Shown: positions 1-17,360 of the stretch, one piece after another
How positions within the stretch are numbered: the first letter of the stretch is position 1
Layout of the letters: every line of letters begins with the position of its first letter
IMG/VR virus record: IMGVR_UViG_2711768066_000009
Span: 1 to 17,462 of that record
Reading direction: 5' to 3' (one strand)
Source of the DNA: a virus
Lineage: Duplodnaviria; Heunggongvirae; Uroviricota; Caudoviricetes
DNA: 17,462 bases
The notes under the pieces: model-generated
Told to the model about the DNA's origin: nothing
Database searches by the model: none
What the model saw: only the letters and a program-made list of their open reading frames with translations
Translations under genes and position numbers: made by a program

Positions 1-573
1 ATGTTTTGCGAAGAAAAAGTAGCTCAAATGGCTGCATACCTACTTCTTAAGCGAGGTGGGCGCATGGCATATCTGAAATTGATGAAGTTGCTCTATCTGT
101 CTAACCGCCAGTCGATTTTGAAGCATGGCAGGATGATCGGCGAAGATAGCCTTTACTCTATGAAATTTGGACCAGTCATGTCGAATACGCTGAACTTGAT
201 TCGCGGTAAGGCTGAAGGCATTGGTGACTACTGGTACAACTTGATAGAGACGAACGGGCATAATGTATCGTTGCGTTCAGATCCGAGGGAAATGGATGCA
301 GACGAGGTCTTTGATGAATTGAGTCGTGCAGATATCCGGATTTTAGATGAAATCTATTCTCGGTATGGGCATATGAACCGATTTGATCTCGCAAATATGA
401 CGCATTTAGAAAGCGTTTGTCCAGAGTGGCACGATCCTGGCAATTCTCGTAAGCCTATAGACCTGAAAGAAATGCTGATCAGTGAGGGTAAAAGCGAGGA
501 TGAGGCTAATCGCATAATTGGCAAAATGGAAGAATCTCAGAAACTTAAGGAATTTTCTTTGCAATTATCATGA
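1..573 (+). CDS. DUF4065/Panacea-like domain protein (putative antitoxin-type component); may begin at or just before window edge
   Basis: 190-aa ORF starting at window position 1. Motif KLMKLLYLS...GRMIGEDSLYSMKFGPVMSNTL fits my memory of the DUF4065 (Panacea/SocA-like) signature (KLxKLLY ... GPV). Overlaps next ORF by 4 bp (ATGA). Family call is from memory, not a search. Confidence 0.55.
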   Translation: MFCEEKVAQMAAYLLLKRGGRMAYLKLMKLLYLSNRQSILKHGRMIGEDSLYSMKFGPVMSNTLNLIRGKAEGIGDYWYNLIETNGHNVSLRSDPREMDADEVFDELSRADIRILDEIYSRYGHMNRFDLANMTHLESVCPEWHDPGNSRKPIDLKEMLISEGKSEDEANRIIGKMEESQKLKEFSLQLS

Positions 574-989
574 CGGATTATCAGCCATACAGGAAAGGAA
601 CTGTGCTTGCCCCAACTGGGCCATGCAATCATCTTCATGTGATTTGTAATGATCCTGTTTATTACCCCGTTAACGATTGTTATTGTGTTTTAGTTGTTAA
701 TATTTCTAGTATCAAGGATGGTGTCCCCCACGATCCGTCTTGCGTCTTGAATTCTGGTGATCATCGCTTTATCAAGCATCCAAGTTATGTTGTTTACGCT
801 GAAGCTATAATTTGGCGAGTGGATAACATGGTTAGAAAGCAGCGATCGGGTGAGATTTCTGTTCATGATGATATGCCAGAAGCTACATTCAATAGAATTC
901 TGGACGGTTTTGATATCTCTGATGAAGTTACGCCAAAGAACCTTAAATTTAAAAATAAATATTGCGTATCATCTATTGATGATGAGTAA
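570..989 (+). CDS. hypothetical protein, candidate toxin/effector partner of upstream Panacea-like gene
   Basis: 139-aa ORF, ATGA overlap with upstream gene (translational coupling). Visibly more AT-rich than the phage backbone. No family recognised with confidence; faint resemblance to small beta-barrel toxins (MazF/PemK-like) is speculative. Confidence 0.5.
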   Translation: MTDYQPYRKGTVLAPTGPCNHLHVICNDPVYYPVNDCYCVLVVNISSIKDGVPHDPSCVLNSGDHRFIKHPSYVVYAEAIIWRVDNMVRKQRSGEISVHDDMPEATFNRILDGFDISDEVTPKNLKFKNKYCVSSIDDE

Positions 990-1028
990 ACAACAGGAAT
1001 TGTTTCGGTATAACTTCAGGAGTTTTCT

Positions 1029-1202
1029 ATGGAAGATCAAAAAGCAACCAAGCCACAGGTTAAGTTCGACACAATGAAAGCATTCGCAGGTATGGGTGCT
1101 GCTGTTGAAGTTCTGATGAAGGCTGCTCCTAATGCGTTCACTCACGCTACTGTCTCTGGTAAAGAGCAGCAGGGTAAGCTTCGTCGTCGCAAAGCAGCAT
1201 GA
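1029..1202 (+). CDS. small hypothetical protein (57 aa), basic C-terminus
   Basis: Hand-translated ORF below the 60-aa track cutoff: MEDQKATKPQVKFDTMKAFAGMGAAVEVLMKAAPNAFTHATVSGKEQQGKLRRRKAA. AGGAG 6 nt upstream of ATG; followed directly by an intrinsic terminator. Confidence 0.4.
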   Translation: MEDQKATKPQVKFDTMKAFAGMGAAVEVLMKAAPNAFTHATVSGKEQQGKLRRRKAA

Positions 1203-1218
1203 TCATAGCTGGTGCTTT

Positions 1219-1250
1219 TTGAAAACCCGCCTTTAGGCGGGTTTTTTATT
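1219..1250. terminator. bidirectional rho-independent terminator between convergent transcription units
   Basis: AAAACCCGCC-TTTA-GGCGGGTTTT perfect 10-bp stem, flanked by A-run upstream and T-run downstream; sits between the stop of the 57-aa ORF (+) and the stop of the minus-strand gene at 1250. Confidence 0.75.
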
Positions 1251-1531
1251 TAGTGATGTTCTTTGCCCTTCTGTTTGCTTGTTCTGACCTGTTCCCACTC
1301 GATACGTCCTTCTTCTCGTCTTTTGTCTATGTATTCCGCAAGATCCTGAATATTGATGCAACGTTTTGCTTTTTGTGATGTGCCGATGCGATATGTTGGA
1401 ACGGGCAACTTACAAGCGTTTGCTTTTGCTTCTGCCGTGGCTGGACTCATGCCAAAGTACTTTTGGCTAACTGCTGAGAGTTCAATGTTAGGGGTATTGA
1501 ATTCAGCCATCAGTAAAAACAAGGTGTTCAT
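1250..1531 (-). CDS. PrtN/excisionase-like DNA-binding protein (AlpA/Xis-fold family)
   Basis: Minus-strand ORF; start chosen at the internal ATG preceded by GGAG (MNTLFLLMAEFNTPNIELS...). N-terminus resembles PrtN-type pyocin activator / excisionase-like proteins as I remember them. Confidence 0.6.
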   Translation of the reverse strand: MNTLFLLMAEFNTPNIELSAVSQKYFGMSPATAEAKANACKLPVPTYRIGTSQKAKRCINIQDLAEYIDKRREEGRIEWEQVRTSKQKGKEHH

Positions 1532-1567
1532 AATTTTCTCCATCAAAACCGGCTGCACCCGGGAAAA

Positions 1568-2143
1568 TCATAATTCTGTGCTGGTGGCAGGAATTAATTT
1601 CTGCCAGATAGCGGAAACATATTTTGCCTGATGACGGGCATCAGCCAGGGCGTTGTGCCGTTCGCCATCGAAAGGCATGTCCATTTTGGGGTCGAATCCG
1701 ATGGAACGCCCAAGCGTAACGATCGTGCGTACATCGTGGTCATTCCAGTATGCCCACGGGCAGATTTGTCCTGCTCGCTCATAAGCTCCACGTAAAATTA
1801 CGTTGTCGAAGGTGGCTCCGTTACCCCAGACTTTTAAATATTTCGTATTGTCTGCGTGCCGGTTAATGAAATGATTTAGTTCTGAGAGAGCATCGCTGAT
1901 CGACAAAGTATCATCAATACAGATTGCAGCTCGTGCTTCAGGGCTTTGTTTCAACCACCACAGGATGGTATCGCCGTCAGGTGTAGCTCCTTGCCCCATA
2001 GCACTTTCCAGGCTAACAACCGTATAGAATTCTTGTCCGATGTCTCCGGTTTCTGGAGTGAAGAACACCGCGCCAATGGAAACGATCGGTGCATCCTTAT
2101 TTTTCCCCATCGTCTCAAGGTCGATCATTAAGTTGTTCATCAC
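1568..2143 (-). CDS. DEDDh-type 3'-5' exonuclease (DnaQ-like)
   Basis: 191-aa ORF with exonuclease motifs in order: Exo I IDLETMG (D-x-E), Exo II WGNGATFD, Exo III HNALADARH (H-x4-D). Confidence 0.75.
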   Translation of the reverse strand: MMNNLMIDLETMGKNKDAPIVSIGAVFFTPETGDIGQEFYTVVSLESAMGQGATPDGDTILWWLKQSPEARAAICIDDTLSISDALSELNHFINRHADNTKYLKVWGNGATFDNVILRGAYERAGQICPWAYWNDHDVRTIVTLGRSIGFDPKMDMPFDGERHNALADARHQAKYVSAIWQKLIPATSTEL

Positions 2144-2949
2144 TTCACCTCTTGTGATGGTTTTGCTGCAAAATACTCGATACCTTTATCCCAGATAGAT
2201 TTTATGGTCGACCACGTGACTGGCACTTTAATTTCAATACGTCCGCTCCCGTCACAGGTATCGCAATCATCATCGCCAAAGCATTCCAGGCAGCTTATAA
2301 ACGTAGTTTCTGAAAATTCACCGGATAGCGCCCCCTTAGCGCCGTTCTCGGCTGTTAGTCTCTTCGGCACCATAACCCAACCATCCGGAGTTACCGGAGA
2401 GTTGCCAGACAGTGCGTTCTGCAATCGTTCCAGCTTAACGTATTCCTGAACCCTGTTTCCGTCGCACGCCTGAAGCCATTGCACAGCCTTTTGCGCATCA
2501 GTGTGAAAGGCACAAGTGCGACCGTCATCAAATTGCATTTCGTAGAGGTCAGCAACCTGTTTAAACTGCGTTTGTGGCAACTTGTAAGCCTGGCTTGCAG
2601 GTACGGCACCATAGAGCATGGCAGCGCGGCAGGCGTTCCAGCCTTCATCAAAACCGACTATGCCATTATTTAAAGACGGACGAGCATCTGGCACCACCGG
2701 CACTGGCTTGGCTATATATAGCGGCTGAACATACCAGCCCTTTGATAACCAACTGTCAGCAATGTTTTTACTCCTGGTTATTGCCGGAATACCTAAGCCA
2801 TTGTCTGAATGCAGCCATGCCACCGGATCCTCTTCCAGCGATGCCAGAGCAATTTCATAAGCACGGCGCTCAACATTGTCTCGCACGTCCATGCTGCTGA
2901 TTCGTTCTTTGATTTCTTTAATCAGTTCTTTATCGGTAAATGTGGTCAT
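2140..2949 (-). CDS. hypothetical phage early protein (Cys-rich segment CLECFGDDDCDTCDGSG)
   Basis: 269-aa ORF, start/stop overlaps with neighbours indicate operon membership; no confident family assignment. Confidence 0.6.
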   Translation of the reverse strand: MTTFTDKELIKEIKERISSMDVRDNVERRAYEIALASLEEDPVAWLHSDNGLGIPAITRSKNIADSWLSKGWYVQPLYIAKPVPVVPDARPSLNNGIVGFDEGWNACRAAMLYGAVPASQAYKLPQTQFKQVADLYEMQFDDGRTCAFHTDAQKAVQWLQACDGNRVQEYVKLERLQNALSGNSPVTPDGWVMVPKRLTAENGAKGALSGEFSETTFISCLECFGDDDCDTCDGSGRIEIKVPVTWSTIKSIWDKGIEYFAAKPSQEVK

Positions 2950-3311
2950 TATGCTCCAGCCTCCAGTGCTTTTGGCATTACTGCCCAGTGAGTGATGTTG
3001 ACGTTTTCAAGGTCCCCGACCTGAAATGTCCACTGCCATTCTCCGGTTTCTTTTTGCCCCCATGTATACCAGAGAGAACGCCAGCCAATCAGCCAGCCTT
3101 CTCCATTAGCATCAAATAACAGAACACTTTCATTCGCTGGCGGCAGTTCAGCTGACACTGGTATTACTTTGTTTTCCAGTGCTGCACATTTAGCTTCAAG
3201 CGCATCAAATTTACGCACCAGGTATTCAGCATCCGTTTCATTCACTTTCAGATCTCGCGGTACACATTTCCCGCGAAGAAATCCTTCCATTTCGAAAACA
3301 TTCATGCGCAT
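2949..3311 (-). CDS. DUF551-like phage protein (YfdS-like)
   Basis: 120-aa ORF; Trp-rich C-terminal region (GWLIGWRSLWYTWGQKETGEWQW) typical of DUF551-type prophage proteins; overlaps flanking genes. Confidence 0.55.
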   Translation of the reverse strand: MRMNVFEMEGFLRGKCVPRDLKVNETDAEYLVRKFDALEAKCAALENKVIPVSAELPPANESVLLFDANGEGWLIGWRSLWYTWGQKETGEWQWTFQVGDLENVNITHWAVMPKALEAGA

Positions 3312-3838
3312 TTGCGTAACTCCGATAATTCGTTAAAGCGTTCCATAAACATCCCGTAGGCATAGCCTGGAGCCAGTGGAATCACGTTGAACATCTCTGT
3401 TGCCGGGATACCTTCCAGTACAGGCCAGAAAGAGCCATCATCAAGCCCGAGATCGCGGCGTTCGGTTGCCAGCATGATGAGATCGGCATATTTCACGGGC
3501 GTACTCATAACCGGTGGTAACCCGTATTTCTCACGGATTACGGCGTCTATTTTTTCTTCCATCCGTTTATAGTCAGGAAGAAGGCGTTTCAGTGGTGCGG
3601 GAATGTCCTGGCAATACGCTTCTGTTGCATCATGCATTAACGCTTCAAAAGCAAATTCCTGCGGCACCAGCTGGCTGCAAAGAACCGCATGTTGGGCGAC
3701 GCTGTAGAAGTGCGAAAGATGACCGGCAAAGCGACAGATATTTGAAAGGGAAACCGCGATATCGTTAATATCGATGTCGTCTTTATTTATCCTGTCATAA
3801 TAAAAATGCTTCCCGGAAAAAGTTTTAATAAATGACAT
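3302..3838 (-). CDS. yfdR: HD-domain phosphohydrolase (YfdR-like 5'-deoxynucleotidase family)
   Basis: Start set at internal ATG (MSFIKTFSGKHFYY...) preceded by GGAGAACAA. HD motif present (EALMHDATEAY). Resembles E. coli K-12 CPS-53 YfdR as I recall it. Confidence 0.65.
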   Translation of the reverse strand: MSFIKTFSGKHFYYDRINKDDIDINDIAVSLSNICRFAGHLSHFYSVAQHAVLCSQLVPQEFAFEALMHDATEAYCQDIPAPLKRLLPDYKRMEEKIDAVIREKYGLPPVMSTPVKYADLIMLATERRDLGLDDGSFWPVLEGIPATEMFNVIPLAPGYAYGMFMERFNELSELRKCA

Positions 3839-3931
3839 TTTGTTCTCCACGTATATGCGCTGCACTGCGCTGAATTCTGCTAAAAAGAATCCCTCACCAT
3901 CCGGTGATTATTGAGTTAATTACGTTTCCAT

Positions 3932-3953
3932 AAATGCCCCCGCAGGGGCATTT
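3932..3953. promoter_or_regulatory. perfect palindrome/hairpin AAATGCCCC-CGCA-GGGGCATTT in intergenic region
   Basis: 9-bp perfect inverted repeat with 4-nt loop between the DUF2303 gene stop and the HD-gene start; no adjoining U-run, so not a classical intrinsic terminator. Confidence 0.4.
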
Positions 3954-3965
3954 GCAGTAATGAAA

Positions 3966-4790
3966 TCAGGCGGTGAAAGTACCAATAAAGGTTTCTACTT
4001 TGCTGTCTTTGAATTTCTCAACAAGCAGATCACGAAATTCGTTAGCCATTTCTTCCTGCACCGCTTCCAGCTGAATAATGCGCAGAACCAGTACAGGACG
4101 ATCGCCAGTGATAATGCTGAGGCGTAATTTAAACGGACGTTCTTTCAGACCTTCAAACGGAACGCATTTAAATTCAAATGCCACTGGCATAATGTCTTTG
4201 GTCTTCGCTTCGACAGACTCCATCAGGGAGCGTTTGCCGCTGAAGTCATTGTCTTCAAAATCAGCGGTCTGGTTCGCTTCAATTGTGATTTTACGGATCG
4301 CCGCAGCCGCTTTGGTTGCCTGAATGGCGTCACCATTAGCATCAAAGCCCACAAGGTAGTCGGCCCAGTCTTCAATCCATTCTGCCAGTGACTTCTGGGA
4401 GTTACGCTCGCCATTAACAGACAACAGAGCAGAGAACGGTGCTGTCTTTTTCAGTTTGAGAGTGGCGGTGTTATCTGCGTGACCTGGTTCATCAATAGTA
4501 CCCAGGTTAAGCACACTGACGGCTCGCATATTATCGGCATCGATAAAGCAGCGGGTGCCTTCATCTGCAAGATCTTTAGAATAACGGGTAAAGTCATCGA
4601 TGCTGGCAGTGGAAAGTGAACCACGGAAACGGAAACGATTTAAATTAAATTTTTCCAGATCACGAATGCGGAAATTCTCAGGCAATGCCACAGCATCGGC
4701 ACCAATCTTACTGATAATTTCATTAACACCCTGAGCAGAAATAAGGGCATGGATTTGATTAATTGCGGTTGCGTCTAAGTACTGAGACAT
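3966..4790 (-). CDS. yfdQ: DUF2303-family prophage protein (YfdQ-like)
   Basis: 274-aa ORF, GAGGA RBS 6 nt upstream of ATG. Length and sequence resemble K-12 CPS-53 YfdQ as I recall; function unknown. Confidence 0.6.
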
Positions 4791-4855
4791 AATAAGTCCT
4801 CACTATATTAAGATATTCAGTGATGAGATAAATAATCAGTTAATTAAGAACGATA

Positions 4856-5218
4856 TTAATGACCTGCTGCGCGGAGTTTTCCGTCAGGTTCACCGGCAAG
4901 AGTCAGTAATTGTCCCTGGTCTTCCTGCAGAATAGTCAGGCGACCACCGCGATTGACATACATCGGCGTTTCGGTGGTGTCTTCTTCGGAAATTTTCCCG
5001 CGGTTAGTCGGGCGAACATATGAGAGTTTGTGTTTGATTTTCACACGGTTCTCATCAAATGGTTCGATTTCCAGGTTGAGTGAGACCTTCCCTTTGGTTT
5101 TCGTGTTCATCACACCGGAAGCGACTTCACTGAGAACTGCGCCGATTTTGGTTTCAAATACGCCGCCGTCCAGCTCCCCGATAAATGCCTGCACATCAGT
5201 ACTGCGTTCGCTAGCCAT
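4856..5218 (-). CDS. hypothetical phage early protein (YfdP-like), first gene of leftward early operon
   Basis: ORF track extends to 5449, but the internal ATG at 5218 (MASERSTDVQAFIG...) has a strong GAGGAG RBS and gives 120 aa; the upstream extension overlaps a structured terminator region. Confidence 0.55.
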   Translation of the reverse strand: MASERSTDVQAFIGELDGGVFETKIGAVLSEVASGVMNTKTKGKVSLNLEIEPFDENRVKIKHKLSYVRPTNRGKISEEDTTETPMYVNRGGRLTILQEDQGQLLTLAGEPDGKLRAAGH

Positions 5219-5352
5219 TTTGCTGCTCCTCATCATATCGACCCTGCAAGGTCGGTTAGTTTCTCCACAAAACAGAGAAGAACACCTGCGGTGGCAGCCG
5301 CCCGGATGGATTGGGTTATGAGCCCGTCGTCCGGTGATGCTCTTCTCTGTTT

Positions 5353-5401
5353 TGTAAAAAGAGCGGTACCAGCCGGAAGCAAGTGTACAAACTGGTACCG
5401 C
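5353..5401 (-). terminator. candidate intrinsic terminator in the leftward leader (tL-like)
   Basis: On the minus strand: 10-bp GC-rich stem (CGGTACCAG... / ...CTGGTACCGC, plus coords 5363-5372 and 5392-5401), 19-nt loop, then CTCTTTTTAC U-run. Confidence 0.45.
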
Positions 5402-5811
5402 CAAAGCAGTGGCTGTTGTGGTGGGGTTGTCACTCAGGCGTATGGTCAACCTGACAATCCGGTGTCCTCAACGGGGAAAGAGTAACCCCGCCATACTTAC
5501 CGCCGCGCCATTTCGCGGATTACCACAACGCTGAGAGCACTTAGCCAGTTACGGCACCACACTTTGTCGCTGCTCCATAAATGCCCTCATCGTTGCACCC
5601 TGGTCTATTCCCAGGCGTCAAACCGAATCGCCACGCTGGTTAGGCGTCTTATCAGCATCCTCATTGACTTGCACATTCCGGCTACCTGGTTTGTTTGCCC
5701 GAGCAAGGAGTGGATTGTCCCCTTTAACGTCCCCAGACCGCTAACGACGCATGTGCCATACGCCGTGTTACAAGCAAATTTTGTTTAATCTTCCTGTGGC
5801 ATGTTTCTTTT

Positions 5812-5845
5812 AGATACATTATGTATCTTAAGGGTACATTGTCAA
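5812..5845 (-). promoter_or_regulatory. PL-like leftward promoter with overlapping palindromic operator
   Basis: Minus strand reads TTGACA (-35, plus 5840-5845), 16-nt spacer, CATAAT (-10, plus 5818-5823). Perfect 17-bp palindrome AGATACATTATGTATCT (5812-5828) overlaps the -10 and start site. Confidence 0.5.
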
Positions 5846-5849
5846 GTAT

Positions 5850-5872
5850 AAAAAAACCTGCCGAAGCAGGTT
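5850..5872 (-). terminator. intrinsic terminator downstream of the repressor gene
   Basis: Minus strand: GCAGGTT... stem (7 bp, AACCTGC/GCAGGTT, 4-nt loop) followed by a run of 7 U (plus-strand A-run 5850-5856); lies between cI stop (5884) and the PL -35. Confidence 0.6.
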
Positions 5873-5883
5873 ATAAATATTGA

Positions 5884-6558
5884 TTAGGCCTTTATTTTGT
5901 ATCTTCTTGGTTTTCCTGAGAAAATTACTGTACCAATTATAGAGCAATTACCGTTAATCTTAATGTAAGGCTCAGGCCAGTTTGGGTTTAATGCTTTGAG
6001 ATAACGCTGTGTTCCATCTTCTATCAATCGCTTGAAGGTGGTTTCGCCTGTATCGTGCATCAATGCAATAACGTCGTCACCGTGGCAGGCAGGGACTTCG
6101 GGATCAACAAAAATCATGTCTCCCGGGCGATACTCATCAATCATTGAATCACCAATCACCCGCAAGATATAAGTCATTTCGCCACAGGGTACAGGGCAGG
6201 GATAAGTTTCTGCTGTGCTCAAATCAACCTCAGAATAGCCAACTTCTTTCCATGCTCCGGCCTGTACCCATGATATGACAGGGACTAACGTTATTTGTTT
6301 GTTAGTGATTGAAACATCAGGTTTTTTTGTGATGTTCGTGGTCTGGTGTTCTTGATCAAGCCATCCGACAGGCAGGTCGAAACATTTTTCGATGTGCCGT
6401 GCCATGCTGTCACCGATATTTTTAGTAGCACCATCTCCCATAAACCTGCTGGTCTGGGTTGGCTCGCGATCAATCATGGTGGCAAAGGAAGAATTCCCGC
6501 CAACACCATCTCTCAGTTTTCTGGCGTTAGACCGCCGGATGTCATGGACTGTTTTCAT
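5884..6558 (-). CDS. cI: CI-like prophage repressor (N-terminal HTH, C-terminal S24 LexA-like peptidase domain)
   Basis: 224-aa ORF; C-terminal region (VIGDSMIDEYRPGDMIFVD...) matches the S24 autocleavage domain pattern (Ser in GDSM). Position divergent from cro; weak or absent SD, consistent with a leaderless transcript. Confidence 0.85.
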   Translation of the reverse strand: MKTVHDIRRSNARKLRDGVGGNSSFATMIDREPTQTSRFMGDGATKNIGDSMARHIEKCFDLPVGWLDQEHQTTNITKKPDVSITNKQITLVPVISWVQAGAWKEVGYSEVDLSTAETYPCPVPCGEMTYILRVIGDSMIDEYRPGDMIFVDPEVPACHGDDVIALMHDTGETTFKRLIEDGTQRYLKALNPNWPEPYIKINGNCSIIGTVIFSGKPRRYKIKA

Positions 6559-6648
6559 AAAGAAATTAAAACCTTTGTACCGATAAGGTACAAGTATCTT
6601 GAAGGTTCATATTAATCATGTAATATGTATATCGGAGGTACATATTGT
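6559..6648. promoter_or_regulatory. immunity-region divergent promoters and operators (OR/PR/PRM-like)
   Basis: 19-bp palindrome TTGTACC-GATAA-GGTACAA (6575-6593). Rightward promoter candidate TTGAAG (6599-6604), 16 nt, TAATAT (6621-6626). Imperfect second site GGTACATATTGTATG (6636-6650). Leftward -10 candidate TTTAAT directly upstream of the cI ATG. Confidence 0.55.
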
Positions 6649-6849
6649 ATGAAAGCGTATTGGGACTCTTTAACCAAAGAACAGCAGGGCGAGTTGGCCG
6701 GAAAAGTTGGCTCAACACCAGGCTACTTACGGCTGGTTTTCAATGGTTATAAAAAAGCCAGTTTTGTGCTGGCTAAAAAACTTGAGCAATGCACGTCAGG
6801 TGCAATTACGAAATCTGACTTAAGACCGGATATCTATCCGAAAGATTAA
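6649..6849 (+). CDS. cro: Cro-like HTH regulator (YdaS-like)
   Basis: Start at ATG 6649 with GGAGG upstream (MKAYWDSLTKEQ...); small HTH protein; C-terminal ITKSDLRPDIYP resembles YdaS/Cro-family proteins; divergent from cI. Confidence 0.7.
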   Translation: MKAYWDSLTKEQQGELAGKVGSTPGYLRLVFNGYKKASFVLAKKLEQCTSGAITKSDLRPDIYPKD

Positions 6850-6880
6850 CAGAACACCTTCAATTTTTAACCACAGAACG

Positions 6881-7444
6881 ATGAGGCGAACCGTGGGTAA
6901 GCATCACTGGAAAGTAGAAAAACAGCCTGAGTGGTACGTGAAAGCTGTCAGAAAAACTATCGCGGCGTTGCCGGGGGGTTACGCTGAAGCTGCTGAGTGG
7001 CTGGATGTAACAGAGAACGCTTTATTCAACCGCCTTCGTGCAGATGGCGATCAGATTTTCCCGCTGGGATGGGCAATGATTTTACAGCGCGCGGCTGGCA
7101 CTCACTACATTGCGGATGCTGTCGCACAGTCTGCTGGTGGGGTGTTTGTATCGCTTCCTGAAATTGAGGAAGTAGAGAACGCCGATATAAACCAGCGCCT
7201 GCTGGAAGTCATCGAACAGATCGGGAGTTACTCAAAGCAGATTCGTTCGGCAATCGAAGATGGGGTAGTGGAGCCACACGAGCAGACAGCAATTAATGAT
7301 GAGTTGTATCTGTCAATTTCGAAGCTCCAGGAGCATGCAGCACTGGTCTACAAAATCTTTTGCGCTCCAGAAAAGAGTGACGCCCGCGAGTGTGCAGCTC
7401 CGGGCGTCGTGGCGTTTTGTGTCTGTGGAGAAACTAACGCATGA
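6881..7444 (+). CDS. CII-like/YdaT-family regulatory protein
   Basis: 187-aa ORF immediately after cro in the rightward operon; start may instead be the in-frame GTG at 6893 (GAGG upstream). Family call is from position and general resemblance only. Confidence 0.5.
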   Translation: MRRTVGKHHWKVEKQPEWYVKAVRKTIAALPGGYAEAAEWLDVTENALFNRLRADGDQIFPLGWAMILQRAAGTHYIADAVAQSAGGVFVSLPEIEEVENADINQRLLEVIEQIGSYSKQIRSAIEDGVVEPHEQTAINDELYLSISKLQEHAALVYKIFCAPEKSDARECAAPGVVAFCVCGETNA

Positions 7445-8277
7445 ACAGTTTAACGGCAAATAACCGTTTGTCGCAACAGCTGGTGGTCAGTGTCGCTGAA
7501 CACCTGTTGTTACGGCATGAATGCAGATTACCAAATCACCTGGCTGTAAGTAACCACAGAGAACTTTACCTGACTGTGGGGGGCGAGTTGTGCAGGAACT
7601 TAACCGCTGGTTTCGTGACGGAAGAGGACTTTATGTTCATGTTATTCGTTGGGAGCCAGAAACACAGCGCGTTATCTATCTTCGCAAAGACTACCCGCAT
7701 GAGTGCTTTAGTCCTTTGTGGAAATTCAGGCGTGATTTTGTTGAGTGTGAAGGACCACCAGCACATTGATTCTGCCATTCCGGGACGTTACACTGTTCAG
7801 GCACCTTATAAAGCGGGTGTCGGGATTGGCGTCCTGGAATTCAATATAGAGCATAACCGCGCTCATGCGGTTTTTTCGTATCATGAGCATTGCTACGTCC
7901 AAATTATGGTGGGGCGTGCAGGGGCATCGCAAGATGCGCCGGGTTCTATGTTGACCGGTTACGCCAACCCTGTACGTCTCACCACCTCTGTGATTGGCGT
8001 CCCATGTGGTGAGTTCTTTGAATTCAACATAGGGGCTGTCACCATGACTACTCTCCCAACCCTCGCTCGTCTGAATGATGAAGACTTACATAAACTCAGT
8101 TATGTAACAACTGCACTACGTGCTCTGCGCAAGGTAACTCTTTCGGATCCGCAGGCGCATCAGGTTCTGGTAGAAACACTTCTTAACTTGCAGGCTGAAC
8201 GTATTCGTTTGGCGGATAAGGCTAATTTTCATATTCACCGTCTCCTGAATATCAGCGGAGGGCATCGTCATGCTTAA
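7441..8277 (+). CDS. hypothetical protein (278 aa), unknown function
   Basis: Sole long ORF in this interval; ATGA overlap with the upstream gene, and its stop overlaps the ATG of the next ORF; no recognisable motifs. Confidence 0.6.
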   Translation: MNSLTANNRLSQQLVVSVAEHLLLRHECRLPNHLAVSNHRELYLTVGGELCRNLTAGFVTEEDFMFMLFVGSQKHSALSIFAKTTRMSALVLCGNSGVILLSVKDHQHIDSAIPGRYTVQAPYKAGVGIGVLEFNIEHNRAHAVFSYHEHCYVQIMVGRAGASQDAPGSMLTGYANPVRLTTSVIGVPCGEFFEFNIGAVTMTTLPTLARLNDEDLHKLSYVTTALRALRKVTLSDPQAHQVLVETLLNLQAERIRLADKANFHIHRLLNISGGHRHA

Positions 8278-8506
8278 TCCGTTGATCCTCAATATTTGCC
8301 GTTTGCTTCAGCGTAAAAAAACATCAATTCCTACAGTTGGGCAGTGGTACACCACGCCTGCAGGGCATGTTCTACGTGTTAGCCTGGTTGACCGTGAATG
8401 TCAGAAGGTGATTTGTGAACCGCTGGGCCGTAATTACCGCGTCAGTATGCCGCTTATAACCTTTCGCTCCGGAAAAAACATGAAGCATCTCGGAGGTGCA
8501 GCATGA
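8270..8506 (+). CDS. hypothetical small protein (78 aa)
   Basis: ORF overlapping both neighbours (coupled translation); no family recognised. Confidence 0.45.
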   Translation: MLNPLILNICRLLQRKKTSIPTVGQWYTTPAGHVLRVSLVDRECQKVICEPLGRNYRVSMPLITFRSGKNMKHLGGAA

Positions 8507-9321
8507 GTATGGAGCTAATGGTTAAAGCGATGAAAATTCGAGTGGGAAATCCATTGCGAAAACTGGTTCTGATTAAGCTGGCTGATAATGCCAGCGATCA
8601 GGGTGAGTGCTGGCCCAGCTACCAGCATATTGCTGACCAGTGCGAGATTAGCAAACGTTCTGTGATGAATCATATTGCGGCCCTTTGTGAGTCCGGGCTG
8701 GTAAAAAAAGTCACCCGGAAAGGTGAAAAAGGTAACTCAAGTAATATCTATCTCCTTCATCTGGATGGTGCAGGAGATTCACTAGGGGGTAGTGCAAATA
8801 ATTCACTATCTGGTGCAGCAAATTCACCAGGTAGTGCAGGAGTTGCACCAGGGGGTAGTGCAGGAGATTCACCCAGAACCAGTCACTCTTTTGAACCAGT
8901 CAAAGAACCAGTCAATGAACCAATAGCTGTTGGTGCATCTGCTGATGAGTCTGTGCGAGTTCGTTCAAACCGACCGGAATACTCTCCGGAGTTTGAGCAG
9001 GCATGGCTGGCATATCCCAAACGTGCTGGTGGCAATTCAAAATCTGCAGCCTTCAAAGCCTGGAAAGCCCGTTTGAATGAGGGGGTAAACCCCGAAACCA
9101 TGCTGGAAGGTGTGAAACGCTACGCGGGCTGGGTATCTGCGATGGGTAACAGCGGCACACAATTTGTGAAACAGGCTGTCACGTTCTTTGGTCCGGATCG
9201 TCATTTCGAAGAATCCTGGGAAGTTCCTGCGGTATCTGCAGCTAGACGTGAGGACCCGTACTTCAAAGCCAGTTACGACAACGTGGACTACAGCCAGATC
9301 CCGGCAGGATTCAGGGGGTGA
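8503..9321 (+). CDS. phage replication initiation/replisome-organiser protein (N-terminal HTH, conserved phage C-terminal domain)
   Basis: N-terminal HTH typical of phage replication proteins (LVLIKLADNASDQGECWPSYQHIADQCEISKRSVMNHIAAL). C-terminal motif EFEQAWLAYPKRAGG...KAWKA resembles the conserved phage replication C-terminal domain. Central low-complexity Gly/Ser/Ala linker coincides with DNA iterons. Confidence 0.65.
   Translation: MSMELMVKAMKIRVGNPLRKLVLIKLADNASDQGECWPSYQHIADQCEISKRSVMNHIAALCESGLVKKVTRKGEKGNSSNIYLLHLDGAGDSLGGSANNSLSGAANSPGSAGVAPGGSAGDSPRTSHSFEPVKEPVNEPIAVGASADESVRVRSNRPEYSPEFEQAWLAYPKRAGGNSKSAAFKAWKARLNEGVNPETMLEGVKRYAGWVSAMGNSGTQFVKQAVTFFGPDRHFEESWEVPAVSAARREDPYFKASYDNVDYSQIPAGFRG
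8767..8923. repeat. iteron-like direct repeats inside the replication gene (candidate origin)
   Basis: GTGCA-containing units recur at about 21-25 bp spacing (cores near 8768, 8792, 8813, 8834, 8859), including near-identical GGTAGTGCAGGAG(A)TT copies; followed by GAACCAGTCAA twice (8893-8903, 8905-8915). Confidence 0.45.
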
Positions 9322-9415
9322 TCATGAGTCTGTTAAATGACGTTCAGAAATTCATTGAAGCCCATCCGGGCTGTACTTCCGGAGACATTGCGGATGCTTT
9401 TTACGTGGGGGCTTA

Positions 9416-10069
9416 ATGAGTAATAAATATTGCCAGGCGCTGGTAGAACTGCGGAACAAACCAGCCCATGAACTGAAGGAAGTGGGCGATCAGTGGCGCA
9501 CGCCGGACAACATTTTCTGGGGAATTAACACTCTGTTTGGCCCGTTTGTTCTGGATCTGTTTACTGACGGTGATAACGCCAAATGTGCCGCGTATTACAC
9601 GGCGGAAGATAACGCGCTGGCGCATGACTGGTCAGAACGTCTTGCGGAGCTTAAAGGTGCTGCCTTTGGTAATCCCCCATACAGCCGCGCCAGTCAGCAT
9701 GAGGGGCAATACATCACCGGCATGCGTTACATCATGAAACATGCCAGTGCCATGCGTGATAAGGGCGGGCGCTATGTTTTCCTGATCAAAGCTGCCACCA
9801 GCGAAGTGTGGTGGCCGGAAGATGCGGACCATATTGCTTTTATTCGCGGGCGTATTGGTTTTGAACTGCCTGCCTGGTTTATCCCGAAGGATGAGAAGCA
9901 GGTGCCGACAGGCGCTTTCTTCGCTGGTGCTATTGCTGTTTTCGACAAGACCTGGAAGGGACCGGCAATCAGCTACATCGGGCGCGATGAACTTGAGGCA
10001 TGTGGTGAGGCCTTTCTGGCGCAGGTTCGCCAGCAGGCAGAAAAACTGGTCAGGGAGATGGCGGCATGA
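9416..10069 (+). CDS. phage Dam-like DNA N6-adenine methyltransferase
   Basis: 217-aa ORF with NPPY catalytic motif (FGNPPYSRA); size and layout typical of phage Dam-family methyltransferases; ATGA-coupled to downstream gene. Confidence 0.8.
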   Translation: MSNKYCQALVELRNKPAHELKEVGDQWRTPDNIFWGINTLFGPFVLDLFTDGDNAKCAAYYTAEDNALAHDWSERLAELKGAAFGNPPYSRASQHEGQYITGMRYIMKHASAMRDKGGRYVFLIKAATSEVWWPEDADHIAFIRGRIGFELPAWFIPKDEKQVPTGAFFAGAIAVFDKTWKGPAISYIGRDELEACGEAFLAQVRQQAEKLVREMAA

Positions 10070-10392
10070 CGACGTTAACTCAATGCCAGCAGCAGGTGCT
10101 GGATATGCTGATTTCTTACCAGAAAGAACGTGGCTTCCCGCCAACCAATCAGGAGGTGGCAACCATGCTGGGATACCGTTCGGTGAATGCAGCGGTGGAG
10201 CATCTTCGCGCACTGGAGAAAAAAGGCGTCATCACGATAAAGCGTGGCGTGGCCCGGGGGATAACGCTTCATACCGCGATGAAGGACGACGACAGCGAGG
10301 CGGTCGGGATTATCCGCTCACTGCTTGCCGGTGAGGAAAACGCCAGGCTGCGTGCAGCCCACTGGTTACATGAGAGGGGCCTGAAAGTATGA
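10066..10392 (+). CDS. LexA DNA-binding-domain-like protein lacking the S24 peptidase domain
   Basis: 108 aa; residues 1-70 align convincingly with the E. coli LexA N-terminal winged-helix domain (QQQVLDMLISYQKERGFPPTNQEVATMLGYRSVNAAVEHLRALEKKGVI vs LexA [50 protein letters not shown]); no cleavage/peptidase region. Confidence 0.75.
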   Translation: MTTLTQCQQQVLDMLISYQKERGFPPTNQEVATMLGYRSVNAAVEHLRALEKKGVITIKRGVARGITLHTAMKDDDSEAVGIIRSLLAGEENARLRAAHWLHERGLKV

Positions 10393-10778
10393 AGCTGATC
10401 CTGCCTTTTCCGCCCAGCGTGAACACGTACTGGCGACACCCCAACAAAGGGGCGTTTGCTGGTAAGAGCCTGATAAGCGCGGCGGGGCGAAAATTCCAGA
10501 GCGCGGCGTGCGCTGCAATAGTTGAGCAGTTACGTCGTCTGCCGAAACCAACGTCGGCACCTGCTTCAGTGGAGATCGTGTTGTTTCCTCCGGATAACCG
10601 GATCCGCGATCTGGACAACTATAACAAGGCGCTGTTTGATGCCCTGACCCACGCGGGTGTGTGGGAAGACGACAGCCAGGTGAAAAGAATGCTGGTGGAG
10701 TGGGGACCGGTTATCCCGGAAGGGAAGGTCGAGATCACTATCAGTAAGTACGAGAAAACGGCGGGTGCAGCCGCCTGA
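10389..10778 (+). CDS. rusA: RusA-family Holliday junction resolvase
   Basis: 129 aa; N-terminal LPFPPSVNTYWRH and central DLDNYNKALFDALT match RusA catalytic-core motifs. Confidence 0.85.
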   Translation: MKLILPFPPSVNTYWRHPNKGAFAGKSLISAAGRKFQSAACAAIVEQLRRLPKPTSAPASVEIVLFPPDNRIRDLDNYNKALFDALTHAGVWEDDSQVKRMLVEWGPVIPEGKVEITISKYEKTAGAAA

Positions 10779-10797
10779 TTAAGAGGAGAAACGAAGT

Positions 10798-11607
10798 ATG
10801 AATAATCTGATGGTCATTGATGGTATTGAAGTTCGTCGTGATGCTTATGGTCGTTACAGCCTGAACGATCTGCATCGCGCAGCAGTAGCATCTGGTGCAA
10901 ATGCCAGAACCAAGGAGCCAGGAAAGTTTATTTCCAGCCAACAAACTGTTGAGCTTGTTCATGAATTGACCAACACCCAGAATTTGGGTGTTGACCCGGT
11001 GAGTGTGATACATGGGGGAAATGAACGGGGATCGTATGTCTGCAAGGAACTGGTGTATGCCTATGCAATGTGGATCAGCCCGTCATTCCATCTGAAGGTG
11101 ATCCGTACTTTCGATATGGTAACCAGCGCACCGGAAAAATTATCCGGACAGGCTGCTGACAAGATGCAGGCTGGCGTGATCCTGCTGGACTTTATGCGCC
11201 GGGAGTTAAACCTGTCTAACTCTTCAGTGCTTGGTGCCTGTCAGAAACTCCAGGAGGCTGTTGGCTTACCGAATCTGGCACCGCGCTATGCCATTGATGC
11301 TCCTGCTGATGCACACGATGGCTCAAGTCGCCCGACACTGTCACTGAGCGCACTGCTGAAACAGTATGGTATACGCCTGACGGCTAATCAGGCATATCAC
11401 CAGATGGTGAAACTGGGGATCGTCGAGCAGCGCGAACGATACAGCCGTACCGCGATTAACAACATCAAAAAATTCTGGTCGCTGACAGCGAAAGGTTGCA
11501 TGTTCGGCAAGAACATCACCAGTCCCGCAAATCCGCGCGAGACGCAGCCGCATTTCTTCGAATCCCGATTCCCTGAGCTGTTAAAGCTGCTCGATACCGT
11601 TCATTGA
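10798..11607 (+). CDS. KilA-N domain protein (antirepressor-like)
   Basis: 269 aa with strong RBS AAGAGGAG; N-terminal region (IDGIEVRRDAYGRYSLNDLHRAA...) characteristic of the KilA-N DNA-binding domain. Confidence 0.7.
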   Translation: MNNLMVIDGIEVRRDAYGRYSLNDLHRAAVASGANARTKEPGKFISSQQTVELVHELTNTQNLGVDPVSVIHGGNERGSYVCKELVYAYAMWISPSFHLKVIRTFDMVTSAPEKLSGQAADKMQAGVILLDFMRRELNLSNSSVLGACQKLQEAVGLPNLAPRYAIDAPADAHDGSSRPTLSLSALLKQYGIRLTANQAYHQMVKLGIVEQRERYSRTAINNIKKFWSLTAKGCMFGKNITSPANPRETQPHFFESRFPELLKLLDTVH

Positions 11608-11608
11608 G

Positions 11609-12604
11609 GTGACCGTGAGAGCACTACTGACCCCTGAAATTGCCCCGCGTATGGGGATCGTATTGTTCAGGCCAGGTTCAGAGCTGATGCCCCTGTTTAT
11701 GCAGGGGCGTGTCCTGCTGGAGCCTGAGCCGGAGCGTTATTCATCTTTCGCCAGTGGTGCCGTTCCGGCGGCATCACAACCGCTGGCGGATGATCCTGCC
11801 GTTCGGGCCGTGTTCCGCAATGAGGCAGTGATCCGTCGTGCTGGTGGCGTGGAATGTCTTGAAAGCTGGTTACTTCGTGAAAAAGGCTGCCAGTGGCCTC
11901 ATTCCGACTGGCACAGCGAGAACATGACCACAATGCGACACGCTCCGGGTGCAATCCGTCTGTGCTGGCACTGCGATAACCAGCTGCGCGATCAGTTCAC
12001 GGAACGGCTGGAATCAATGGCAACGGATAACTGTGCCCGCTGGGTGTTGTCTGTTGTGCGTCGGGATCTCGGTTTTGATGACAGTCACGTTGTGACAATG
12101 CCGGAACTGTGCTGGTGGCTGATTCGTAATGATCTGGCGGATGCCTTACCGGAAAGTGCAGCCCGTAAGGCACTGAGATTACCGAAGCCTGTTGTGCCGT
12201 CTGTTACCCGGGAAAGTGACCTTGTGCCTTCGGTTCCTGCCACCAGCATCATTCAGGATAAGGCGAAAAAGGTGCTGGCGCTGAAAGTGGATCCGGAGTC
12301 GCCGGAGTCTTTTATGTTACGCCCAAAACGTCGCCGCTGGGTTAATGAAAAGTACACGCGCTGGGTTAAGACACAGCCGTGTGCATGTTGTGGAAAGCCC
12401 GCTGATGATCCCCACCACCTGATAGGTCACGGTCAGGGTGGAATGGGAACAAAAGCGCATGACCTTTTTGTGTTGCCTTTGTGCAGAAAGCATCACGACG
12501 AGCTGCATGCGGATACCGTGGCATTTGAAGAGAAGTATGGCTCCCAGCTGGAGCTGATATTTCGTTTTATCGATCGTGCGCTGGCAATTGGCGTGCTGGC
12601 CTGA
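11609..12604 (+). CDS. DUF968-family protein with Cys/His-rich C-terminal putative His-Me finger nuclease motif
   Basis: 331 aa (GTG start); C-terminal CACCGKPADDPHHLIGHGQGG...CRKHHDELH typical of DUF968 proteins in lambdoid NinR-type regions. Confidence 0.7.
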   Translation: MTVRALLTPEIAPRMGIVLFRPGSELMPLFMQGRVLLEPEPERYSSFASGAVPAASQPLADDPAVRAVFRNEAVIRRAGGVECLESWLLREKGCQWPHSDWHSENMTTMRHAPGAIRLCWHCDNQLRDQFTERLESMATDNCARWVLSVVRRDLGFDDSHVVTMPELCWWLIRNDLADALPESAARKALRLPKPVVPSVTRESDLVPSVPATSIIQDKAKKVLALKVDPESPESFMLRPKRRRWVNEKYTRWVKTQPCACCGKPADDPHHLIGHGQGGMGTKAHDLFVLPLCRKHHDELHADTVAFEEKYGSQLELIFRFIDRALAIGVLA

Positions 12605-12621
12605 TTTTGTGGAGAAAGTTG

Positions 12622-12993
12622 ATGCGTGATATTCAAATGGTTCTTGAACGTTGGGGGGCATGGGTGGCAAATAATCACGAGGATGTGGAATGGTCATCTG
12701 TTGCTGCAGGTTTTAAGGGATTAATTCCTTCGAAAGTAAAATCCCGCCCGCAATGTAGCGATGACGATGGCCTGATCATTAGCTCTGCGATGACAGTTCT
12801 TAAGAAAAAGGAACCGTATCAATACGAATTACTGGAAATGTATTATGTGTATGGGGTTACATTACGGGCGTTGGGGGTAAAACTGGGGATATCACTTAAT
12901 CAGGTTGTTATCAGACTGCAGAAAGCTGAAGGGTTTATTGACGGTTGTCTGGCAATGTTGGGGGTATCTTTAGAAATTGATTGTTACATATAG
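12622..12993 (+). CDS. Q: Q-like late-gene antiterminator
   Basis: Start at ATG 12622 (GGAG upstream; MRDIQMVLERWGAWVANNHEDV...); resembles phage-21/82-type Q (QuuD-like) proteins as I recall; positioned just before the late region. Confidence 0.75.
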   Translation: MRDIQMVLERWGAWVANNHEDVEWSSVAAGFKGLIPSKVKSRPQCSDDDGLIISSAMTVLKKKEPYQYELLEMYYVYGVTLRALGVKLGISLNQVVIRLQKAEGFIDGCLAMLGVSLEIDCYI

Positions 12994-13030
12994 TAATAAA
13001 TTCAATCAAAGTAAATAATCATATTTTATT

Positions 13031-13067
13031 ATAACCTCCTGATGATACCTGTTCATCGGGAGGTTAT
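13031..13067 (+). promoter_or_regulatory. 15-bp stem-loop sequestering the ribosome-binding site of the downstream moron gene
   Basis: ATAACCTCCTGATGA (13031-13045) pairs with TCATCGGGAGGTTAT (13053-13067), one G-U pair, 7-nt loop; the 3' arm contains GGGAGG and ends 1 nt before the ATG at 13069. Confidence 0.5.
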
Positions 13068-13068
13068 T

Positions 13069-13686
13069 ATGGATAAAAATGTAGAGCATGTATTAGTTGA
13101 TGCAATTGAAAATAAGCAATCTTTAACAGTCGTTTACTTAGGAGGGAGCCAGCCCGGAACATTAAGGAATATTTCTCCGATTAGTATAAATGGGGATAAA
13201 TTGCGGGCAAGATGCCATAGTTCTGGAGCAGTAAAGGTTTTCAATCTTGGGAAAATACAGTTACCCAGTGACTCCTGCGCGGTATCTATGCACTATGGAG
13301 ATTTAGAAGTTAAAGCTTATGAGACGATGCAGAGCGTAAATGACAACTTTCATGCCCTTTATCCTGAAGGACGATGGGGTGTTGATTTTAATGAGCATCG
13401 CTTTGCTTTATTTGATTTTTTTAAAAACGGGAAACGAAAAAAAACGGCATTTATGGCAATTGAGTTCAGGGAAAGAGATGAAGAGAAAATAATAACAGGT
13501 GTAACAATTGATATTGGTATATCTGGAACAGTGATTTCTGAGAAGTCCCGAATCCCAAAAAGACGACCATGGGTAGTGGTTGGTCCCGAACACGGAGAAT
13601 ACAGTACTTATTCAACTTTGGACAAGGCTGCTACAGCGTTTTTTGAGAGGCTTTCGTTGATAGCATCCGGCCTGGAAGATAATTGA
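13069..13686 (+). CDS. hypothetical moron protein (205 aa), possible N-terminal WYL-like beta-barrel; function unknown
   Basis: Start at ATG 13069 behind GGGAGG; strongly AT-rich coding sequence unlike the flanking phage backbone; N-terminal segment SLTVVYLGGSQPGTLRNISPISINGDKLRARCHSSGAVKVFNLGKIQ loosely resembles a WYL-type domain (low confidence). Confidence 0.55.
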   Translation: MDKNVEHVLVDAIENKQSLTVVYLGGSQPGTLRNISPISINGDKLRARCHSSGAVKVFNLGKIQLPSDSCAVSMHYGDLEVKAYETMQSVNDNFHALYPEGRWGVDFNEHRFALFDFFKNGKRKKTAFMAIEFRERDEEKIITGVTIDIGISGTVISEKSRIPKRRPWVVVGPEHGEYSTYSTLDKAATAFFERLSLIASGLEDN

Positions 13687-13816
13687 TTTTATGTTTGGTA
13701 TTCAGAGTTCGCCGTGCTTAAGAAAGTCAAGATTCTAAAAATACTGAATGAGCTACTTGTGTTATAACAAAAATGCTATTAGTGTGTTAAGAGTGGTTAC
13801 TTCGCCACACAACTTA

Positions 13817-13842
13817 AACCCGCCACTGAGCGGGTTTTTTGT
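13817..13842 (+). terminator. rho-independent terminator downstream of the moron
   Basis: AACCCGC-CACTGA-GCGGGTT stem followed by TTTTTT. Confidence 0.7.
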
Positions 13843-13938
13843 ACCTGTAAACTTGGTGCAGTACAGTAAACACGCTGGTGGTCGTGAATACTGACTTTTT
13901 ATCTTGCTGGCTTTTTAGACAAGAGTTATTGGTATGTC

Positions 13939-14166
13939 ATGTTAACAAGAAGGGAAAAAGACATGCTAAAACAGCAAGATATGACAGAAACCGCCGCCGC
14001 AGTCCTTCATTTCTTACCTGCTGACAAGTGGGTAACGCCACGCATGATGACGAGAACTACCGGAGTAAGCGAAGCCCAGTGCCAGTTAATACTGACTCAG
14101 TTAGTTCTGGCGGGTCTGGCGAAGGATAACGGCGGGTACGGGAATAAATTCAGACGCTGCCAGTAA
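13939..14166 (+). CDS. small hypothetical protein, possible winged-HTH
   Basis: 75-aa ORF; segment VTPRMMTRTTGVSEAQCQLILTQLVLAGLA looks HTH-like; start uncertain (in-frame ATGs at 13939 and downstream). Confidence 0.4.
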   Translation: MLTRREKDMLKQQDMTETAAAVLHFLPADKWVTPRMMTRTTGVSEAQCQLILTQLVLAGLAKDNGGYGNKFRRCQ

Positions 14167-14316
14167 TGGCGGTTTCCTGCTGTGAAAATGGGCGGCTGGT
14201 GGGTGTTGGTAGCACCTGCCAGCCATTCGCTCATGCTTACTGGTCACAAGCGAACCACGGCCCACTGCTTTAGCGCAAAAGCAGAGTGAGCCTACCAGAG
14301 TTACGCTTACTGATCC

Positions 14317-15369: not shown

Positions 15370-15436
15370 TCTGGTGGCCACGTCAGGTGGCCTTTTTATT
15401 TCCATTACACAGCACCCGCATCTGCGAGGTGGGGTT

Positions 15437-16753: not shown

Positions 16754-16787
16754 GATAAGAGCCAGTCATTACAAATACCAGGATTTA

Positions 16788-17357: not shown

Positions 17358-17360
17358 ACA

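Follow-up and report, generated by a model that had tools for sequence, protein, structure and literature searches.

p57, a conserved small prophage protein usually encoded beside a GNAT-fold gene and here left without it

Introduction

What is the role of a 57-codon gene that lies at one end of a prophage, between a toxin-antitoxin-like gene pair and an excisionase-like gene? The gene in question is found on the plus strand at 1029-1202 of a tailed-phage sequence of 17,462 nt (IMG/VR record IMGVR_UViG_2711768066_000009, positions 1-17,462), which is referred to at its full length as the window; the 57-aa product is referred to as p57. A preliminary description of this DNA had singled out the gene as an unannotated open reading frame (ORF) with a strong Shine-Dalgarno sequence and a dedicated terminator. 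The answer proposed here is that p57 normally accompanies a GNAT-fold protein in a mobile cassette, that the window has lost this partner through recombination and that p57 would act as an antitoxin-like neutraliser of the partner. Taken whole, inferred mechanism included, this account is tentative, with somewhat less than an even chance of holding throughout.

The p57 gene and its family

The p57 coding sequence starts with an ATG at 1029 and ends with a TGA at 1200-1202. An AGGAG Shine-Dalgarno sequence can be read at 1018-1022 (plus strand), 6 nt ahead of the ATG, in agreement with the canonical spacing first reported, and a GAGG or GGAG motif precedes the start at an equal distance in all 14 lineages inspected. 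No stable structure is predicted for the translation initiation region (995-1065; minimum free energy -8.2 kcal/mol, z = +0.87). Codon choice had been described as that of a highly expressed gene, and the codon adaptation index (CAI; w values of Sharp & Li 1987) supports this: at 0.56, it is the highest in the window, where 18 other genes range from 0.17 to 0.44, and it falls within the top 0.3% of 57-codon windows.

Loss of the reading frame in related prophages had been named as the observation that would count against this gene, and the opposite was found. More than 15 enterobacterial lineages retain the frame, with pairwise dN/dS values of 0.07-0.31 between homologues. Among 58 codons of the alignment, variable columns number 21, 23 and 52 at the first, second and third codon positions, respectively, and the annotated frame is the only one that is open in all homologues. 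p57 is very probably a real, translated gene, and its description as a small basic protein gene with good translation signals stands (isoelectric point 10.2, conserved frame).

The label "unannotated" is true only of the ORF track used for the preliminary description and is wrong for the public databases. In RefSeq the protein is WP_000390072.1 (hypothetical protein), and it is annotated in phages mEp460 (mEp460_024), SKA5 and Lys8385Vzw. p57 matches PHROG 2741, a family labelled as of unknown function, over its full length (residues 1-57 on profile positions 1-57 of 57; E-value: 8.4e-36, 122.8 bits). The gene is carried by 561 of 5426 complete E. coli genomes (approximately one in ten), and homologues of 51-61 aa are known from Salmonella, Enterobacter, Atlantibacter, Pseudescherichia, Franconibacter, Cronobacter, Hafnia, Photorhabdus, Brenneria, Edwardsiella, Serratia and Plesiomonas. 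The family is narrow, as an exhaustive profile search of 1.8 billion representative proteins produced just 11 true clusters at 50% identity. These clusters are all of 54-63 aa after trimming of miscalled N- and C-terminal extensions, with one spurious repeat protein (P0052) set aside. Neither single sequences nor the family profile gave a usable match in Pfam, NCBIfam, PADLOC or the PDB sequences; in Pfam, there was no match for p57 at E-values up to 1 or for 14 family members at E-values up to 10. p57 can be classified as a 6.2-kDa basic protein of PHROG 2741, a small family restricted to Enterobacterales prophages.

The GNAT-p57 cassette

The usual neighbour of p57 is a gene encoding a GNAT-fold protein of approximately 178 aa (PHROG 4350). 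This gene has an intact p57 gene 185-197 nt downstream in 80 of 80 IMG/VR loci. It precedes p57, with a gap of 93-197 nt, in every genus-level lineage listed except Cronobacter, and the pair was seen in mEp460, Salmonella, Enterobacter, Pseudescherichia, Franconibacter, Hafnia, Photorhabdus, Brenneria, Edwardsiella, Serratia and Plesiomonas. Phage mEp460 shares its backbone with the window; there, p57 is preceded by a 177-aa gene and a 196-nt spacer.

This linkage is one-sided. No PHROG 4350 GNAT gene without p57 was seen across the loci and lineages examined, and p57 occurs without the GNAT gene in two arrangements: that of the window and that of Cronobacter, in which p57 adjoins an unrelated 85-aa gene and has lost its basic tail with the terminal Ala-Ala. 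Because the GNAT gene is never alone and p57 sometimes is, the pair has the asymmetry expected of a toxin and its antitoxin. It is probable, if by no means certain, that p57 is functionally tied to its GNAT partner.

The pair occupies at least four different prophage cargo slots. It lies between the attachment site (att) and the excisionase gene (xis) in E. coli, Salmonella and Plesiomonas; between the Q antiterminator region and the lysis genes in Hafnia, Enterobacter, Serratia, Edwardsiella and metagenomic contigs; among tail genes in Photorhabdus; and beside cI in Brenneria. A further p57 slot, between portal and terminase, is found in other phages. The position of p57 beside xis and att, which had been taken as a clue to its function, loses its value as such because the gene occupies these several other slots elsewhere. 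A role in host interaction or regulation, also suggested at the outset, may still apply to p57; its strongest association found is with the GNAT-fold partner gene, which the window lacks. In the usual arrangement, p57 is the second gene of a mobile cargo cassette of two genes; the cassette consists of the GNAT gene, the gap, p57 and a terminator.

The gap itself contains conserved elements. In an alignment of 14 lineages, promoter-like boxes (TAGACG-N16-18-TA(G/C)GAT) are common to all, and the leader contains three to four hairpins (for example, TACCAATCG...CGATTGGTA), in which five pairs show compensatory changes. The mEp460 leader (L002, 3802-4000; equivalents in L006-L011, L014, L019, L023, L080 and L094-L106) has a folding energy of -46.9 kcal/mol (z = -3.3), and no Rfam family matches it.

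In Hafnia (L011-L013, ~3050-4110), a 319-352-aa RelA_SpoT-domain protein is encoded directly upstream of GNAT-p57 and matches PDC-S33 (E-value: 1e-112), a candidate defence family of PADLOC. This neighbour places the Hafnia cassette in a defence-type cargo island between antiterminator and holin genes.

Properties of p57 and of its partner

An AlphaFold2 model of p57, built from an 18-sequence alignment, has a single helix at residues 15-32 and is otherwise disordered (mean predicted local distance difference test [pLDDT] 64). On this prediction, p57 is a single amphipathic helix flanked by basic, disordered tails. The conserved motifs of the family are FDT..AF..MGAAV[DE][VLI]L.KAAP, an invariant E.QG[KR], a basic run and a terminal [A/V]-A. 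The p57 C-terminus, ...RRRKAA, has the terminal Ala-Ala and the basic run followed by small aliphatic residues that mark ssrA-like and MuA-like ClpX degrons. Even family members of 36-40% identity retain a basic run followed by the terminal [A/V]-A, the exception being the orphan form of Cronobacter. In ssrA-like degrons, the terminal Ala-Ala is critical, though not sufficient, for recognition by ClpXP (PMC10862746), and the MuA degron is RRKKAI (PMC8138137). By analogy, the p57 tail is a lead to a possible ClpX degron-like signal.

The possibility that p57 is a type I toxin, that is, a small membrane peptide made from an mRNA whose 5' UTR is structured, was considered and rejected. The protein is not hydrophobic (grand average of hydropathy [GRAVY] -0.55) and its central helix carries K17, E27 and K31. 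Furthermore, 205 E. coli genomes tolerate p57 downstream of a different operon and with no leader, which also speaks against a toxin of this type.

The PHROG 4350 partner gave a much better AlphaFold2 model (pLDDT 87, predicted template modelling score 0.85). A Foldseek search with this model returned only GNATs; the best match was the toxin AtaT (6gtr_A; E-value: 2.4e-6), and the toxins TacT3 and KacT were within the first 50 matches. The partner family retains a Tyr at the usual ...YY.SFGF position. A search of the PDB sequences with the GNAT-family profile produced only spurious gp41 coiled-coil matches. Based on the structural model, the usual partner of p57 appears to be a GNAT-fold protein.

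The arrangement in the window

The GNAT gene and the leader are both absent from the window, where p57 is the third of three co-oriented genes. The first (1-573, plus strand) encodes a PanA-like protein with a Panacea/SocA antitoxin domain (Pfam PF13274; E-value: 2e-19), designated "Panacea domain-containing protein" in RefSeq. The second (570-989, plus strand) overlaps the first by 4 nt and encodes a putative PanT-type toxin of 139 aa with a match to PHROG 19071. The p57 gene follows after a gap of 39 nt. PADLOC has no match for the PanA-like protein or the 139-aa protein.

Alignment with the mEp460 GNAT-p57 cassette places a recombination junction at 1010-1017 (plus strand), as similarity starts just upstream of the Shine-Dalgarno sequence. 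Upstream of this junction, the window has the 3' end of the 139-aa gene and mEp460 has its 196-nt leader. Homologues of PanA and the 139-aa protein (70-86% identity) are encoded without p57 in 14 other viral loci, 12 of which have at least 2 kb of downstream sequence; in both loci whose downstream sequence was read (L251 and L252), a separate terminator is found right after the 139-aa gene. p57 is present in all 63 loci with a 139-aa gene that is at least 99% identical, and this, together with the common junction, indicates a single recent recombination event followed by spread. Among the 561 complete E. coli genomes with p57, 205 have the PanT-p57 junction and 358 have GNAT-leader-p57, so that practically every carrier is of one form or the other. 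The PanA/139-aa pair is an independent module that was put, by one recombination, in place of the unrelated GNAT gene and leader, with p57, its Shine-Dalgarno sequence and its terminator left behind as the third cistron.

A promoter-like sequence (TTGACC-17-TAAACT) is found approximately 125 nt upstream of the PanA ATG, beyond the window (L001, 4897-4925). No sigma-70-like plus-strand promoter was found within window positions 1-1028, leaving this site as the only promoter-like one of the unit.

The orphan copies of p57 are intact in 40 of 40 IMG/VR sequences, with approximately four nonsynonymous (V11L, A20V, R54L and A56V) and four synonymous polymorphisms. Among database proteins, the five clearest disrupted alleles (P0029, P0032, P0040, P0042 and P0048, with frameshifts and one in-frame deletion) are all of the orphan type, as assigned by a MEDQ N-terminus or window-type upstream sequence; this is not a proper count. 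One disrupted allele (P0009) is clearly of the GNAT type. These alleles suggest that constraint on p57 may have been relaxed once the GNAT gene was gone.

The toxin-antitoxin-like PanA/139-aa pair lies at the very end of a dusA-integrated prophage. Many IMG/VR contigs (L111-L142) start at window base 1, which is the PanA ATG, or at base 570; such identical starts point to a common automated prophage-boundary call and not to a biological end. The true prophage end (a dusA 5' fragment and att) lies approximately 250 nt further upstream in L001.

The terminator and 3' UTR

Pattern scanning and folding identify an intrinsic terminator downstream of p57 (1221-1247; 1221-1246 by the scan). Its hairpin consists of AAAACCCGCC (1222-1231), a TTTA loop and GGCGGGTTTT (1236-1245), with a T-run after the second arm and an A-run 5' of the first. 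The perfect 10-bp GC-rich stem was correctly described at the outset; the distance given for it, 17 nt after the ORF, was not, as the stop codon and the stem are separated by 19 nt. On the plus strand, the hairpin has a folding energy of -23 kcal/mol (z = -3.65). It has the attributes of an intrinsic terminator: a GC-rich hairpin, a U-run directly following it and conservation together with p57. An equivalent hairpin is found 3' of p57 in all lineages, with variation in the stem and loop sequences.

A convergent gene ends on the other side of the hairpin. This gene (1250-1558, minus strand) encodes a PrtN-family, excisionase-like protein (Pfam PF11112, E-value: 4e-23; PHROG 1300, excisionase, E-value: 8e-40), and its stop codon is 3 nt from the far side of the hairpin. 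On the minus strand, too, the sequence forms a hairpin (-18.1 kcal/mol), and the A-run on its 5' side would enable it to terminate in both directions, so that in the window it is a terminator between two convergent genes, p57 and xis. The term "dedicated" is thus inappropriate for the window, where the terminator is common to both genes. It is appropriate for the p57 cassette, to which the terminator belongs because it follows the ORF in every other genomic context.

The short 3' UTR between the ORF and the terminator (TCATAGCTGGTGCTTTTT, 1203-1220, plus strand) is 18 nt in length. In the alignment, it is nearly invariant across lineages whose synonymous divergence (dS) is 0.3-0.55, which suggests that it may be under constraint beyond that required for termination.

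Proposed model for p57

The proposed sequence of events begins with the ancestral cassette. In this arrangement, p57 would be made abundantly, from a strong Shine-Dalgarno sequence, with codons of high CAI and possibly from its own promoter. The protein would be turned over rapidly by means of its conserved C-terminal ...RRRKAA, which resembles the ssrA Ala-Ala and the MuA RRKKAI recognized by ClpX. While present, its amphipathic helix would bind and neutralise the GNAT partner in the manner of an antitoxin acting on a GNAT toxin. In the window, transcription of p57 would come from the PanA promoter by read-through, with p57 probably the final cistron of the PanA operon, and loss of the leader means that it is now expressed under different rules. 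There it would be an orphan, antitoxin-like remnant that is either dispensable or provides immunity against the GNAT of related phages.

That p57 is an antitoxin-like neutraliser of the GNAT partner is possible, with the chances rather against it. A broader proposal can be made, in which GNAT-leader-p57 would be an undescribed toxin-antitoxin or abortive infection defence system of prophages, with a ClpXP-turned-over helix protein, its own promoter and a structured leader, and in which the GNAT-less copies would serve as stand-alone antidotes, making a phage or lysogen resistant to that defence. This proposal is speculative and distinctly unlikely to be correct in full.

Several observations weigh against the antitoxin function. 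With respect to the partner, sequence profiles do not detect a GNAT and there is no Pfam GNAT match; the Foldseek margin of AtaT over SpeG, Gcn5 and RimI is tiny; and an invariant HPLxGxM replaces the canonical Q/R-x-x-G-x-G/A coenzyme A (CoA)-loop motif. With respect to p57, the structural model is of low confidence, and RRKAA is more positively charged than the best ClpXP tags of a published screen (PMC10862746). p57 is often better conserved than the GNAT protein (for example, 86-93% identity for p57 and 66-72% for GNAT); antitoxins do not usually show this pattern, which hints that the target may be a conserved one in the host or a nucleic acid. The orphan gene is not obviously decaying, to judge from its sequences, although the swap looks recent. 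A literature search found nothing on p57, PHROG 2741 or the mEp460 copy, and no published experiment or expression data. Finally, p57 differs in both domain content and gene order from the antitoxins of known GNAT systems, as discussed below.

Alternative explanations

The explanation that comes nearest to the antitoxin model is that p57 is an autonomous small effector or regulator of a conserved host target (protein, membrane or nucleic acid), to which the GNAT protein is merely fellow cargo. p57 would then retain its full function in the window. The conservation of p57 above GNAT in many lineages is in keeping with this, as is the conservation of the tails predicted to be disordered, including the invariant E.QG motif. 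The cassette also provides p57 with an apparent promoter-like element and a terminator of its own, the very high CAI suggests an abundant product, and the gene is intact with a good Shine-Dalgarno sequence in both GNAT-less arrangements (all 40 IMG/VR copies of the window type, and Cronobacter). However, strict one-sided linkage over many lineages and slots would not be expected of independent genes, and the disrupted alleles are concentrated in the orphan type. Moreover, the window-type arrangement goes back to a single recent swap, given that 63 loci have a 139-aa gene of at least 99% identity, and intact orphan copies therefore say little about selection. An autonomous effector is, on this evidence, rather unlikely.

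A second explanation is that the p57 transcript is as important as the peptide, or more so, for example as a dual-function or 3'-UTR-derived regulatory RNA whose terminator would form the end of an Hfq-binding small RNA (sRNA). The nearly invariant 18-nt 3' UTR could be accounted for in this way, and so could the strong structure of the ancestral leader, with its compensatory changes; sRNAs are, furthermore, already found in this prophage family (sRNA-17, isrK and C4). Against it, purifying selection acts on the p57 amino acids, with substitutions patterned at third positions, and the window lacks the leader altogether, yet the ORF and Shine-Dalgarno sequence are kept. A search of window positions 900-1300 with Rfam 15 found no gathering-level match, and the sub-threshold matches were weak and all generic, terminator-like ones. 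An RNA role of this kind is improbable.

p57 could also be a third, accessory component of the co-transcribed PanA/PanT module, given that it lies 39 nt downstream of the 139-aa gene in the same orientation, that no promoter-like site separates the genes and that the sole plus-strand terminator of the unit follows p57. Some PanA loci are known to carry an accessory third gene (PMC8832971). Conserved co-occurrence with the pair is lacking, however: none of the 14 other PanA/139-aa loci has p57, L251 and L252 have their own terminator after the 139-aa gene, and the usual neighbour of p57 is the GNAT gene. This explanation was rejected as very improbable.

Only a slim chance is left to the view that p57 is an accessory factor for excision or integration, which would suit its place between the attachment site and excisionase gene in the window and in the mEp460, SKA5, Lys8385Vzw, Salmonella and Plesiomonas prophages; it was rejected because the genomic slots are variable (GNAT-p57 is also found in the Q-lysis, tail-gene and cI slots), and no DNA-binding fold is predicted for p57. 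A chance open frame, which the shortness of the ORF, its lack of a domain match and its low-confidence model might suggest, is refuted by the family-wide conservation of frame, length, start, Shine-Dalgarno sequence and motifs and by dN/dS values well below 1, and can be practically dismissed.

Other features of the window

The window contains several features at some distance from p57. Primers published for sRNA-17 match the plus strand at 5363-5392 exactly, placing this sRNA at approximately 5355-5550 in the early-left region, downstream of yfdP. sRNA-17 is an ArcA-modulated, 193-nt sRNA of an mEp460-like prophage in E. coli K1 RS218 (PMC7719688). The p57 locus was considered as a candidate for sRNA-17 and rejected based on this primer position. 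Two further RNAs, isrK (7801-7877, plus strand; 60 bits) and the C4 antisense RNA (7902-7989, plus strand; 80 bits), are matched at the Rfam gathering level and adjoin each other inside an ORF (7441-8277) whose product has an Ash-family domain.

A 214-aa ORF at 13042-13686 (plus strand) has the lowest GC content (0.40) and CAI (0.17) in the window and no Pfam match. It is flanked by a DUF968 gene and an N6/N4 DNA methylase gene. As this is roughly the slot that GNAT-p57 occupies in Enterobacter hormaechei (L023-L026), the ORF is probably another cargo gene.

Comparison with known systems

p57 is ordinary in kind, being a conserved small prophage gene that was already in the databases; the new result is its genomic context. 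A real and probably abundantly translated protein is encoded in a mobile GNAT cassette that moves among slots known for defence and toxin-antitoxin genes. If p57 is an antitoxin, it would represent a non-ribbon-helix-helix (non-RHH) type of antitoxin for GNAT toxins, and the window would hold a natural orphaned antidote. If it is not, p57 would still stand as a clearly delimited candidate for a lysogen protein that is highly expressed and acts on a host target.

The window resembles the PanA/PanT modules described by Kurata et al. (2022; PMC8832971) in having a PanA-domain gene and a partner gene that overlaps it by 4 nt, with which p57 is apparently co-transcribed. p57 is not a part of this module, which occurs elsewhere without it and with its own terminator where the downstream sequence was read.

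In its usual form, the p57 cassette is similar to the morons of prophages, which are self-contained pieces of cargo that bring their own expression signals: it is compact, combines a promoter-like element and a strong Shine-Dalgarno sequence with a terminator of its own, and is found in variable slots of lambdoid and other temperate phages. In contrast, p57 in the window has neither promoter nor leader and depends on the neighbouring operon.

Phages can carry antitoxins that act on toxin-based defences, as T4 Dmd does on RnlA and LsoA. The GNAT-less types of p57 could be compared to Dmd, as small phage proteins that could neutralise a toxin encoded elsewhere. This comparison is pure analogy, as p57 and Dmd have no sequence similarity.

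A further comparison is with the type II systems that pair a GNAT toxin with an RHH antitoxin (AtaT-AtaR, TacT-TacA and KacT-KacA). The p57 partner has a predicted GNAT fold, with AtaT, TacT3 and KacT among its structural matches, and the small protein is expected to contribute a helix and to be turned over rapidly. As in these systems, the small gene can occur by itself, the large one was never seen to do so, and the pair is carried by mobile elements. Unlike the known antitoxins, p57 has no RHH/DUF1778 domain according to Pfam, the PDB profile search and AlphaFold2. The known antitoxin genes are upstream of the toxin gene and overlap it; p57 is downstream, after a gap of 93-197 nt, and possibly has its own promoter. 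The often greater conservation of p57 than of GNAT, the non-canonical CoA-loop motif of the partner and the absence of the GNAT gene from the window are further differences. The GNAT-p57 cassette is thus outside these systems by the features that define their members, but it is widespread and resembles the logic of GNAT toxin-antitoxin pairs.

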